Positions 9,201 through 58,571 are shown, counted from the first letter of the stretch. The stretch is 64,000 nt of DNA from an uncultured Bacilli bacterium (GCA_934153945.1 CAKPFM010000004.1:34469-98468), one strand, 5' to 3'. Notes: generated by a model not told the origin, from the letters alone. Numbers and translations: made by a program.

Positions 9201-9300
9201 ACTTTCACCACTATAAAATATGCTTAAATTTAATAATTATTACATAATTCGACAAATATTGACATAAGAAAAATGTATTATATTGTCGAGAGGTGATAAT

Positions 9301-10476
9301 ATGAATTTATTTGATTCAGTATTATTTTTAATTATTTTAGCTATATTTCCTTTTACATTATATTTTTTATATTTAATTTATACAAAAACATTACAAATAG
9401 AAAAAAGTCGATTAATATTAGATTTTGTTATATTTAGTTCGTTTTATTTAATTTTAAAATATAATTTTAATTATGTAGTTTCTCTTATATTGATAAATGT
9501 TCCATTTATAATAGCATATTACGGTAATAGAAAATTATCAGTTTTTATACTATCAATTTTATCAATATATTATTATCATATTTACTTTGATATTAATTAC
9601 TTCTTTTTAATAGCTGAATACTTAATTTATTATGGTATATATCAATTAGATAAGGAAAAATTTTTTAATATTTTTATAATTATCAAATTTTTAATATTAA
9701 CTATATTTTTAATAAAAACAAACTATATTATTTTATTAAATGTTATATTATTTATAATAATTAAATTCTTATTATATTCATTTAAAAAAATTGAACAAGT
9801 TATTTCTTTACACAAATCTTTAGAACAAACAAATGAAAATAATAAAATGTATGAATCATTATTTAAAATAACTCATGAAATTAAAAATCCAATAGCAGTT
9901 ATAAAAGGTTACTTAGATATGTATGATGAAAATAACGAAAAACATAAAAAATATATACCTATAATAAAGAGCGAAACTAATAGAGTATTAGTTTTATTAG
10001 AAGATTTTTTATCTATAAATAGAATAAAAATTAATAAAGATATAATTGATATTTCTTTACTAATAGAAGAGGTAATAATAAGTTTTGAACCATTATTAAA
10101 AAATAGACATATAAAAGTAAACTTTGAACAAGATGAAATATATATTGAAGCAGACTATGATAGATTAAAACAAGTCTTTATAAATTTAATAAAAAATAGT
10201 ATAGAAGCTATTAATAATAATGGAATTATAGATATAGATATTGTTCCAAAAAATAAATATATATATATTAATGTTAAAGATAATGGTATAGGAATGAAAA
10301 AAGAAGAGATAGAAAAATTAAACTATCCATTTTATACAACAAAACAAAATGGAACAGGATTAGGATTATACTTATCAAAAGAAATAATAAAAAAACATGA
10401 TGGAACTATGTCTTTTGAATCAATTGATGGAATGAATATTGGTATTAAATTGCCATATGATGCTAGATTAAATTAA
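9301..10476 (+). CDS. Orphan sensor histidine kinase with a six-TM sensor domain
   Basis: ATG at 9301 after a GAGAGGTGA RBS. H-box THEIKNPI, N-box NLIKNSIEA, G1 VKDNGIGM, G2 GTGLGLYLS. No response regulator is adjacent. Confidence 0.8.
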   Translation: MNLFDSVLFLIILAIFPFTLYFLYLIYTKTLQIEKSRLILDFVIFSSFYLILKYNFNYVVSLILINVPFIIAYYGNRKLSVFILSILSIYYYHIYFDINYFFLIAEYLIYYGIYQLDKEKFFNIFIIIKFLILTIFLIKTNYIILLNVILFIIIKFLLYSFKKIEQVISLHKSLEQTNENNKMYESLFKITHEIKNPIAVIKGYLDMYDENNEKHKKYIPIIKSETNRVLVLLEDFLSINRIKINKDIIDISLLIEEVIISFEPLLKNRHIKVNFEQDEIYIEADYDRLKQVFINLIKNSIEAINNNGIIDIDIVPKNKYIYINVKDNGIGMKKEEIEKLNYPFYTTKQNGTGLGLYLSKEIIKKHDGTMSFESIDGMNIGIKLPYDARLN

Positions 10477-54213: not shown

Positions 54214-54286
54214 CACTTAGTTTACGTTTCTATCTTTACAAATGTATAAATTTCATGTATAATGAACTAAGTTATAGAGGTGCGCT

Positions 54287-54907
54287 ATGAAAGAAAAATT
54301 ATCATTATTATATAAAATTATTATTGTTATTGTATGTGGATTTGGAATTTATTTAAATTTTAAGGCATTTACAGTAGGTGGAGCAATAATATATTATACA
54401 GTACAAAGTAATGTAATGTGTTTTATATTTTATTTAGTAACTGTTATATTAAAAATAGCAGGAAAACTAAAGAAAAATTCAAATTATTATATTTTAAAAG
54501 GTATGGTAACAATGGCTATTACTGTTACAATGGTAGTATTTCAATTTGTAATTACTGACTCAGGAATGACAGCATATGCTGGCAATGAACTAGCAAGTAT
54601 AATGGCCCATATAGTAGTTCCATTATTAGTTATGAGCGATTATGTAATATTTGGAGAAAAAGGAAATTTAAAAAGAAATTATCCATTTATATGGAGTGCT
54701 ACATTGGTATTTTATGTAATATTTGATTTTGTCTATGTAGCTTTAGGTGGTAGATTTGGTGATGGTAGTATATATCCTTATTTATATATGAATATAGAAG
54801 TAAATGGATTATTAAAAGTAATAATTAGTTGCATAACAATATTTATTTTATTTATAGGATATGGAACAATTATTCAAACTATAGACCAAAAATTAGGTAA
54901 GAAATAG
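54287..54907 (+). CDS. Polytopic membrane protein, unknown function
   Basis: Six hydrophobic segments. 206 aa. Confidence 0.45.
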   Translation: MKEKLSLLYKIIIVIVCGFGIYLNFKAFTVGGAIIYYTVQSNVMCFIFYLVTVILKIAGKLKKNSNYYILKGMVTMAITVTMVVFQFVITDSGMTAYAGNELASIMAHIVVPLLVMSDYVIFGEKGNLKRNYPFIWSATLVFYVIFDFVYVALGGRFGDGSIYPYLYMNIEVNGLLKVIISCITIFILFIGYGTIIQTIDQKLGKK

Positions 54908-54915
54908 GTGGTATC

Positions 54916-56703
54916 ATGAAAAATAATGTTAAAGGAATCAATAATAAAGTAGTAAGTAATTTAATTACAAATTTTCTATTAATAAAAAATCTTCCTACTC
55001 ATTATAAATTTGTTAGAGAAAATAAAAAAGGAAATCTATTAGGTAAAAAAGTTAAGTTTTCCCCATATTTAAATTTAATTGACCTTATGGAAAATAATCC
55101 AGAAATTAAAAATAAGGTTGCAATTAAACAAAATAGAGAAGTAACTTATTTAGAATTTCGAAAAGAAATAGATAAATTAGGTCAATTTTTACATTATGAA
55201 ATAGGTACATTAAAAGGAGAAAATATAACTATATGTGCTGAAAGTTCTATTGAAGGAATTGAGGCATTCTTTGCTTTTAACAAATTAGGATTAGTAAATG
55301 CTAGAGCATTTAATGGAGCAAAAAAAGATAAATTAAATCACAGTATAATTGATTTTGATTCAAGAATAGTATTTACCGATGATAATAATTTAGATGAGTT
55401 AAGTATTTCATTAGATGGTACAAGAGTAGAAAATGTTATTGTAATGTCTGAAGCAAAAGAAGAAAAAATAAATAATTTTAAACAAAAAAATCCAAATGTA
55501 AATATATATTTGTGGAGTGAAATAATATCTAAAGAATATCCATATGATGATTATATTGAAAAAGTAGGAATAAATGATATGGCATCAATTTTATATACAA
55601 GTGGTTCAGGTGGAGAACCAAAGCCAATTTCTATTACTAATAAAGTTTATGTAAATATGCCAAATATCGTGGAAACTACAGCTAATCAAAAAATATGTGA
55701 TGATGAAAAAGTAGTAGGTGTAGTATCACACGAATATCCATATGCTGCTATCAATAGTACAGTAATGATTTTATTGATGGGAAAAACGTTAATTTTACCA
55801 AAAACTGTTGAAAATAATGCATTAGATTTTCATGATTTAATTAAAAATCATCCAGATAAAATACAAGCAATTCCAAATTTTTATAAATTATTAGAAAGCG
55901 CTATTTCTAATGGAGAAGTAGATACAAACGATTTAAAACATTTAAAAAACATTGTATCTGGAGGAGAAACATATTTATTAAAAGAAAAAATAGATATAAT
56001 AAATTTCTTAAATAAATTTTTAGCTGATCCATTATTGATAGATGGATTTGGATTTGGAGAGTTAGGAAGTGCTACAGCACTAAAATTTGGATTAAGTAAT
56101 TATTTTCTACTCATGAATGGTATAGTTGCTAAAGCAATAGATGAAGAAACAGGTGAAGATTTAAAAGCTGGAAAAGAAGGAGTTTTATGTATATCAAGTC
56201 CTAGTATTTCTAAATGTTATTACAATAATGAAGAAGCAACTAAAGAATCTTATATAACTGATGAAAATGGAAATTACTGGTTTAAATCAGATACATATGG
56301 TTCAGTTCACGGTATGTTTAATAGATTAGTAAAATTAGGTGGTAGAATAAGGGAATACTTTATTACTGGAGATGGACATGGAAATTTTGTAAAAGTCTAT
56401 GCAGGAAATGTCGAAAATGCTATAATGGAAACAAATATAGTAGAAAATTGTATAGTTGTACCATCTGATTCAAGTGCTCTTCCAACAGCAGTAGCTTATA
56501 TTTCTATAAAAGAGGATTGTTTCTTAACTCCTGATGAAATAGAAAATAAAATAAAGGAATCTTGTAAAACACTAGAAGAATTTGCCCAACCTACTGAAAT
56601 TATAATAGAAAAAGAAATTAAAAGAACAGCTGCCCAAAAAAAGGATTATAAATATTATAGGCAATTACAATTAAATAAAGATAAGGTAAAAACACTTGGT
56701 TAA
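54916..56703 (+). CDS. AMP-dependent synthetase/ligase (adenylate-forming enzyme)
   Basis: AMP-binding signature YTSGSGGEPKP. 595 aa. Confidence 0.7.
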   Translation: MKNNVKGINNKVVSNLITNFLLIKNLPTHYKFVRENKKGNLLGKKVKFSPYLNLIDLMENNPEIKNKVAIKQNREVTYLEFRKEIDKLGQFLHYEIGTLKGENITICAESSIEGIEAFFAFNKLGLVNARAFNGAKKDKLNHSIIDFDSRIVFTDDNNLDELSISLDGTRVENVIVMSEAKEEKINNFKQKNPNVNIYLWSEIISKEYPYDDYIEKVGINDMASILYTSGSGGEPKPISITNKVYVNMPNIVETTANQKICDDEKVVGVVSHEYPYAAINSTVMILLMGKTLILPKTVENNALDFHDLIKNHPDKIQAIPNFYKLLESAISNGEVDTNDLKHLKNIVSGGETYLLKEKIDIINFLNKFLADPLLIDGFGFGELGSATALKFGLSNYFLLMNGIVAKAIDEETGEDLKAGKEGVLCISSPSISKCYYNNEEATKESYITDENGNYWFKSDTYGSVHGMFNRLVKLGGRIREYFITGDGHGNFVKVYAGNVENAIMETNIVENCIVVPSDSSALPTAVAYISIKEDCFLTPDEIENKIKESCKTLEEFAQPTEIIIEKEIKRTAAQKKDYKYYRQLQLNKDKVKTLG

Positions 56704-56741
56704 AAGTGTTTTTGTGTTATAATAGTATAGAGGTGTATAAA

Positions 56742-58571
56742 ATGTTTAACATGTATTTTCAATTTTTTGGATTATTAGATATTATTTTACTTACAATTGT
56801 ATATTTTACAAAGACTACTTTTAAAAGTGAGGAAAATAAAATATATGGGTGGTTAATAATAACAAGTTTTATAGGTCAAATATTGCATATTTTGAGTTAT
56901 ATAACAATTTATAATATGGAATATATTCCATTAATTAATATTATTGTAACAAAATCATATTTGATATACTTAGTGGTATGGATATCATTACTTTTTGTTT
57001 ATATATGTATAGTTACATATAAATATTCAAATCAAAAAGGAATTAAAAAGAAAATAAGAAAAATTAGTTTATATACATTTCTAATAGATGTAATAGTATT
57101 AATACTATTATTAATGTTACCAACATATTGTTTTTGTGATGGTAGTGTGGTATATACATATGGTGCAAGTGTAAATTTAATTTATTTAATATCAATTATG
57201 TATATTACTATATCATTATTAATGTTTATAACTCATTTTAAATTAATAGTTAATGCTGGATTAAAAAAATATATTCCACTTTTTGCATTTGTTTTAATAG
57301 GTAGTGTAGTTATGGTTATTCAATATACTAATCCAAGTTTATTATTAATAACATCTTGTGAAACTTTTATAACATTTTTGATGTATTTTACAATAGAAAA
57401 TCCAGATTTACAAATGCTAAAAGAATTTCATAAAGCAAGAAAATTTGCTGATGAAATAAATAATGAAAAAACAGAATTTTTATTTAATATGTCAAATGAA
57501 ATAAAAAATCCAATAAAAAATATTAATTTATTAAGTAAAGATATATTATCTAGTAATGAAAATACAAAAAAAGATGCATTAGAAATAAGTAGATTATCAT
57601 CACACTTAATTCAAATTGTCAACAATATTCTTGACATAACAGATTTAGAAGCTAGAAAAATAGTTATTCAAGGAACAAAATATAATGTTTCAAATTTGTT
57701 TCAAAGTATTAATAAACAATTTGAATCAAAATTGAATGAAGAAATTAAATATAATTTTAAATATGATAATAGTATACCAGAATATTTATATGGTGATTCT
57801 ATACGTATAAAGCAAGTTATGAATATTTTATTAGATAATGCTAAAACGTATACTAAAAATGGTTTTATTGATGTAAATATTAATTCTATAATTAAGCATG
57901 ATATTTGCCGATTAATAATAACAGTAGAAGATTCTGGTATAGGTATGACATTAGAAGAACAAGCTCATCTATTTGATAAACAAAAAATATATAGTGATGA
58001 GACACTAAAAATAATTGATGACAATCAAAATAATTTAGGAATAGCTAAATCATTAATTAATTTAATGAATGGAAGTATTATGGTAAATAGTGAATATGGA
58101 AAAGGAACTACATTTACTGTTGTATTAGATCAAAAGGTAACAAAAGAAGAAAAATCAAAACAAATAGAAGTTGTAGAAAAATATGAAGAGGTATATGTTA
58201 ATAATGATAAATTACTACTTGTTATTAATGATGCTGATTTAAGTAAAAAGGTTAATAAGCTTTTAAAAAAATATTCTATTGATATTGTAGAGGTAAAAGG
58301 TGGACAAGCCTGCTTAGAAAGATTAAGAAATAAGGAAAAATATAATTCAATTATTATTGAAGAGGAGTTAGAAAAATTAAGTTGTGAGGATACTTTAAAT
58401 AAAATAAAAGATACTCCAGGATATAAAATACCAGTAATAATAATGACTAAAAATAAAGAATTTGGATCAAAAGAAAAATATTTAGATAAAGGATTTAAAG
58501 ATGTAATATATTTGCCAATAAAAAAGGAAGATTTTATAAAAACTTTAGATAAGTATATAGAATTAAATTAA
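56742..58571 (+). CDS. Hybrid sensor histidine kinase-like protein with substituted phospho-sites (probable pseudokinase)
   Basis: ATG at 56742 after an AGAGGTG RBS. Six-TM sensor domain. H-box reads FNMSNEIKNPI, with AAT (Asn) at 57495-57497 where His is expected. N-box and G1 are present. The C-terminal REC-like domain has ...NSIIIEEE... where the phospho-Asp is expected. Confidence 0.6.
   Translation: MFNMYFQFFGLLDIILLTIVYFTKTTFKSEENKIYGWLIITSFIGQILHILSYITIYNMEYIPLINIIVTKSYLIYLVVWISLLFVYICIVTYKYSNQKGIKKKIRKISLYTFLIDVIVLILLLMLPTYCFCDGSVVYTYGASVNLIYLISIMYITISLLMFITHFKLIVNAGLKKYIPLFAFVLIGSVVMVIQYTNPSLLLITSCETFITFLMYFTIENPDLQMLKEFHKARKFADEINNEKTEFLFNMSNEIKNPIKNINLLSKDILSSNENTKKDALEISRLSSHLIQIVNNILDITDLEARKIVIQGTKYNVSNLFQSINKQFESKLNEEIKYNFKYDNSIPEYLYGDSIRIKQVMNILLDNAKTYTKNGFIDVNINSIIKHDICRLIITVEDSGIGMTLEEQAHLFDKQKIYSDETLKIIDDNQNNLGIAKSLINLMNGSIMVNSEYGKGTTFTVVLDQKVTKEEKSKQIEVVEKYEEVYVNNDKLLLVINDADLSKKVNKLLKKYSIDIVEVKGGQACLERLRNKEKYNSIIIEEELEKLSCEDTLNKIKDTPGYKIPVIIMTKNKEFGSKEKYLDKGFKDVIYLPIKKEDFIKTLDKYIELN

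Follow-up and report, generated by a model that had tools for sequence, protein, structure and literature searches.

What can a hybrid histidine kinase do once the residues of phosphotransfer are gone, and what links it to an adenylating enzyme? The question is raised by a three-gene unit on the plus strand of the window, the 64,000-nt stretch of DNA from an uncultured Bacilli bacterium analysed here. A promoter-like site, TTTACA-17-TATAAT (54235..54263, 11 of 12 matches), lies 5' of the unit, but is weak evidence only, as 60 such sites were found across this AT-rich stretch against 63.6 expected by shuffling. The first gene (54287..54907) encodes a 206-aa six-helix membrane protein of the Pr6Pr family (NCBIfam NF038065, E 6e-12, 46 bits, cut-off 30). 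Its stop codon is followed after 8 nt by the gene of a 595-aa adenylate-forming (AMP-binding/ANL) enzyme (54916..56703; PF00501, PF13193), the conserved partner, which ends 38 nt short of the start of the kinase-like receptor (56742-58571, 609 aa). The start codon of the receptor is backed by a GAGGTG ahead of the ATG, and by the length of the homologues (607-611 aa). The NF038065 and PF00501 matches bear out the original prediction that a six-TM protein and an AMP-dependent ligase precede the kinase. A Pr6Pr homologue resides at the equivalent position in one related locus (L012, E 6e-65), and a 208-aa gene occupies the Pr6Pr position in the syntenic locus of a close relative (P0022), but the gene was not found in the other related loci. 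It is a lineage-specific neighbour, outside the conserved core, and drops out of the sensory and acylation module initially envisaged, of which the link to the adenylating enzyme holds.

The N-terminal residues 1-222 of the receptor (56742..57407) make up a seven-helix membrane sensor domain, which ends at an invariant MYFTIENPD junction. A DHp/HisKA-like helical domain (residues 223-310, 57408..57671), a CA/HATPase_c-like domain (residues 311-470, 57672..58151) and a pseudo-receiver domain (residues 489-605, 58206..58556) follow. Pfam recognizes HATPase_c (PF02518, E 2.7e-16, 60.4 bits, cut-off 26.4) and Response_reg (PF00072, 38.5 bits); HisKA scores 21.8 bits, under the gathering score of 26.9, and the helical domain is assigned by this match along with alignments to solved kinases. 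In the phmmer alignments to 7z8n and HK853 (2c2a/3dge), the stretch 'flfnmsNeiknpi' of the receptor is found opposite 'flanmsHeirtpl' and 'fianisHelrtpl', and Asn252 (codon AAT, 57495..57497) is consequently assigned to the phospho-His column, as had been supposed. The canonical kinase used for comparison, located at 9283-10476 of the window, indeed reads ITHEIKNPI. Erosion of the G2 box was also correctly perceived, since the remnant DDNQNNL (residues 426-432, 58017..58037) replaces GGTGLGL and carries no glycine at all. In turn, the N-box Asn366 and the G1 box D397-x-G-x-G401 (D397, G399, G401) are invariant. Nucleotide binding, and some nucleotide-dependent role, may therefore persist.

The fused receiver was aligned to RR468. 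The phospho-Asp (Asp53) corresponds to Glu540, the first Glu of 'IIIEEE' (58359-58361), and Thr83 is kept as Thr569 (58446-58448). Both residues had been correctly read, and Asn252 and Glu540 alike fall on catalytic columns. The acidic pair and the Lys were misplaced, however. The putative acidic pocket 'NDAD' is off by one, as the Asp-Asp of RR468 (Asp9/Asp10) and of canonical family members aligns to Ile495/Asn496 (58224-58229). Similarly, Lys105 of RR468, which lies in a K-P pair in 54 of 54 canonical members, aligns to Leu591 of 'YLPIKK' (58512-58514). Four of the five catalytic residues are thus gone, and Thr569 is the sole survivor.

Each substitution is one base away from CAT or GAT, and a sequencing error, or a decaying pseudogene, had to be considered. 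The hypothesis is refuted, and its chances are practically nil. His is absent from the phospho-His column in 120 of the 120 nearest homologues, which come from independent samples and share 45-99% identity with the receptor; 99%-identical copies, on contigs of three different assemblies, are among them, and independent assemblies agree on the Asn. As a term of reference, the His is missing from 0.9% of the HisKA domains sampled, and the Asp from 2.0% of receiver domains (PMC12632262). Intact ORFs of 590-615 aa occur in hundreds of genomes, and the cytoplasmic domains are better conserved than the membrane domain: in the comparison with one homologue (P0057), the membrane domain is 36% identical, the ATPase-like domain 68%, the receiver-like domain 66%. 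Collins and Childers, cited in PMC12632262, conceive of pseudo-histidine kinases as proteins with a kinase fold which miss one or more kinase functions and are retained by selection. The receptor corresponds to this description, because ORFs are full-length across 35-99% identity, and the sensor is less conserved than the ATPase-like and receiver-like parts. Judged from its sequence the receptor is a pseudokinase, as originally suggested, which has lost both phospho-acceptors, the His and the receiver Asp, along with the G2 lid, while purifying selection persists.

According to the same prediction, Glu540 is a phosphomimetic residue locking the fused receiver in an active-like state, which would result in a constitutively 'on' output. 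Glu is the commonest replacement at the Asp site of pseudo-receivers, and partly activates some response regulators, yet for some pseudo-receivers such a phosphomimetic role has been disproved (PMC12632262). An acidic residue, either D or E, is retained within the clade of the window receptor. However, the Lys and the acidic pair, thought to be needed for Glu to mimic phospho-Asp, are gone. Moreover, among relatives at 63-68% identity, two have Asp (P0020, P0023) and one Glu (P0022), and in the wider branch the site may be D, E, S, N, K, Q, T or L. A locked receiver is accordingly regarded as very unlikely. Glu-at-Asp pseudo-receivers in which the receiver fold is kept and phosphorylation is not expected are found in plant PRRs, fungal Rim15 and many bacterial proteins (PMC12632262). 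In contrast, the fusion partner of the one described here is a dead kinase, and not a DNA-binding or clock module; the Lys and the acidic pair are missing as well.

The receptor belongs to a large, apparently undescribed family from uncultured gut bacteria, whose members carry HisKA, HATPase and receiver domains behind a seven-helix membrane domain. A search with a membrane-domain profile retrieved 3911 cluster representatives at E <= 1e-3, 499 of which at E <= 1e-30, and at least 578 family loci were counted in GTDB species genomes. Hosts are uncultured low-GC gut Bacillota, known from MAGs labelled Tenericutes or Bacilli. The 197 members compared fall into two branches, which have the architecture and the DHp junction in common. 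The canonical branch includes 54 His-containing members, all of which keep the G2 box, with three glycines, and the receiver DD, D, T and K. The degenerate branch includes 143 His-less members, all of which lack G2 and have at most one glycine in the corresponding stretch. Of the 197, 196 keep the N-box Asn. Without His and G2, and with a decaying receiver, the window receptor is a member of the degenerate branch.

Could such proteins still be phosphorelay enzymes? The role of acceptor could have been taken over by His230, in the motif 'EFHKAR', which occurs in 78% of the His-less sequences sampled, against 2% of those from the canonical branch. Alternatively, the window protein could act as a dedicated phosphatase, as it keeps Glu253 and Asn256, at the His+1 and His+4 positions (E253-x-x-N256), and the phosphatase activity of HisKA proteins does not require the His (PMC12632262). 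Both possibilities are highly improbable. His230 lies 22 residues membrane-ward of the normal site; 23 close homologues carry a Tyr there, and of 72 His-less representatives only 8 have the His. At His+4 the branch is not uniform (T, N, E, K, S, V and A all occur), the G2 lid is missing, and no receiver partner is encoded nearby.

The last point separates the two branches. Gene neighbourhoods were sampled in the best 80 of more than 578 loci, a choice which may introduce a bias. In this sample, a gene encoding an HPt-receiver protein is found downstream of the receptor in 38 of 52 testable His-containing loci, but in none of 24 His-less loci, and no such gene was found in the 64-kb window. In the canonical branch HPt and receiver form one protein, which has no DNA-binding output. 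Around His-less pairs the remaining genes have housekeeping functions, among them those for MurD, a class I (Trp/Tyr-type) tRNA synthetase and LemA; hence the enzyme-receptor pair looks self-contained.

A degenerate receptor could alternatively tune a relay encoded elsewhere, in the manner of RetS or DivL, by forming heterodimers with an intact paralogue or by binding a phosphorylated receiver. The architecture and the DHp junction common to both branches fit this hypothesis, and RetS is among the solved relatives of the receptor (6dk8, E 6e-16). Some His-less members, as L056 and L007, have a fully intact receiver, and 17 in the representative set retain the receiver D, K and DD. Pseudo-kinases acting as modulators are moreover documented (PMC4211667, PMC12632262). 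Yet, the DHp domains of the two branches are no more than about 36% identical, every dead copy keeps its own co-varying ligase, and the receiver in the window lacks most of its catalytic residues. In the four assemblies in which two copies were sampled, admittedly a small set, branches are unmixed (H/H, Q/Q, N/N, H/H). A modulator of this kind thus appears unlikely.

DivL of Caulobacter, RetS of Pseudomonas and RcsD of enterobacteria similarly exemplify kinase folds selected for roles other than autophosphorylation. RetS, a detectable sequence relative, also shares the domain order, from seven membrane helices through HisKA and HATPase to the receiver. DivL and RetS keep the ATP-binding domain, and are placed inside defined phosphorelay networks. 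In contrast, the window receptor has jointly lost the His, the G2 lid, most of the receiver site and the neighbouring relay gene, and its conserved partner is not a two-component protein but an enzyme of another class. Furthermore, its membrane domain has no 7TMR-DISM match.

The partner is an ANL enzyme (PF00501, E 4.5e-38, 131.5 bits; PF13193, E 3.6e-05, 25.0 bits). Key residues of motifs A3 (TSGSGGEPK), A5 (Glu), A7 (Asp), A8 (Arg) and A10 (Lys) are kept, with KSD instead of TGD and QK instead of GK among the deviations, and catalytic motifs are intact in ligases associated with either branch. The sequence does not reveal the substrate, as even the top hits in NCBIfam and PDB score far under family cut-offs. 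The best solved relatives are acetyl-CoA synthetases, at E 3e-18 only, and a weak NCBIfam match, also under cut-off, points to acyl-[ACP]-phospholipid O-acyltransferase. Like Aas (acyltransferase/acyl-ACP synthetase) and FadD, the ligases are AMP-binding enzymes, and at part of the family loci a PlsC-type acyltransferase (PF01553) and a HAD phosphatase are added. All matches are however far under family cut-offs, and the window locus has no acyltransferase. To our knowledge, no Aas or FadD system is coupled to a seven-helix kinase-like receptor.

The pairing is conserved. Of 75 testable loci, 68 have a same-strand AMP-binding gene upstream of the receptor, mostly at a distance of 4-120 nt; for the His-less branch the figure is 22 of 24. 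No ligase-receptor fusion was found among the longest family members. Pairwise identities of ligases and membrane domains are correlated (Mantel r = 0.53, reached by none of 2000 permutations), and the correlation is higher within the His-less branch (r = 0.85). Ligase and cytoplasmic core are in contrast uncorrelated (r = 0.03), and so are membrane domain and core of the same protein (r = 0.01). These values should be read keeping in mind that the Mantel test takes no account of shared ancestry, and that the membrane domains, at about 35% identity, are near saturation.

Co-variation of enzyme and sensor domain is compatible with the hypothesis that the ligase makes an acylated small molecule, either exported or membrane-borne, which is sensed by the adjacent seven-helix protein in a quorum-sensing-like manner. 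In Vibrio, CqsA/CqsS and LuxM/LuxN, which feed LuxU, are likewise encoded by an enzyme gene beside that of a polytopic hybrid kinase lacking a large extracellular domain. In the family described here the enzyme gene is directly 5' of the receptor gene, and the cytoplasmic part has LuxQ as top NCBIfam match (E 6.4e-48, far under cut-off). Several divergent pairs reside in one genome or contig (L052, L065, L013), and the acyltransferase and phosphatase found at some loci could build an acyl ester. The likeness of the HPt relay is however confined to the canonical branch; the degenerate branch has no relay to pass a signal on, and the window copy is predicted to be unable to relay phosphate. The enzyme is neither a PLP-dependent acyltransferase nor an AHL synthase, and we know of no AMP-binding enzyme among autoinducer synthases. 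No exporter or thioesterase recurs in the family loci examined, and shared substrate recognition would explain the co-variation equally well. A synthase-receptor pair is thus possible, but rather unlikely.

The nature of the sensor deserves attention. No Pfam model covers the membrane domain of the family, none of the seven-helix families in Pfam gives a profile match, and 18 diverse members yielded no match to the 7TMR-DISM, 7TMR-HD and 5TMR-LYT profiles at E <= 10. Its predicted structure is closest to eukaryotic GPCRs, with the helix order and packing of GPCR bundles. In this it differs from 7TMR-DISM proteins and the LytS-type BtsS (PMC10653868), in which seven helices are likewise coupled straight to the kinase core. 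As in bacterial seven-helix receptor kinases, the signal is presumably perceived in or at the membrane.

The reading we favor, to which about even chances are given, is that of a receptor-ligase module matched to a common ligand, in which phosphotransfer has been abandoned. Enzyme and membrane domain co-vary, the substitutions are fixed, the genes are linked, and the relay partner has been lost. The plan common to the family would be a cassette in which an adenylate-forming enzyme gene precedes a receptor gene. In the canonical branch, an intact hybrid kinase would feed the HPt-receiver protein encoded downstream. The degenerate branch would have lost the HPt-receiver gene, together with the His and the G2 lid, and retained the enzyme pairing, and the DHp-like, ATPase-like and receiver-like domains would be folds deprived of their phosphotransfer chemistry. 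We infer the ligand class, direct protein contact and the type of output as follows. The membrane domain may bind a carboxylic acid, small and probably hydrophobic, or the activated product made from it, the same molecule handled by the paired ligase. Occupancy would reach the ATPase-like and receiver-like domains by way of the invariant junction and the DHp-like coiled coil. The output would be non-catalytic, most likely binding and control of the ligase, or of another protein. The invariant N-box and G1 box speak against this reading, and a canonical paralogue, or an HPt protein encoded outside the window, may make use of the receptor.

A bolder hypothesis, decidedly unlikely as it stands, is that receptors with a GPCR-like fold have dispensed with phosphotransfer and signal by contact with their cognate adenylating enzyme. 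According to this view, the remodelled ATPase-like domain, in which the adenine-binding G1 and N boxes are kept and the phosphate-binding lid has changed into a conserved IDDxxNNLG motif, would read the AMP or acyl-adenylate of the enzyme, and not ATP. Were this correct, receptor occupancy and enzyme flux would be coupled within one complex, and ligases and membrane domains would represent matched input modules, joined to either a live or a dead kinase core.

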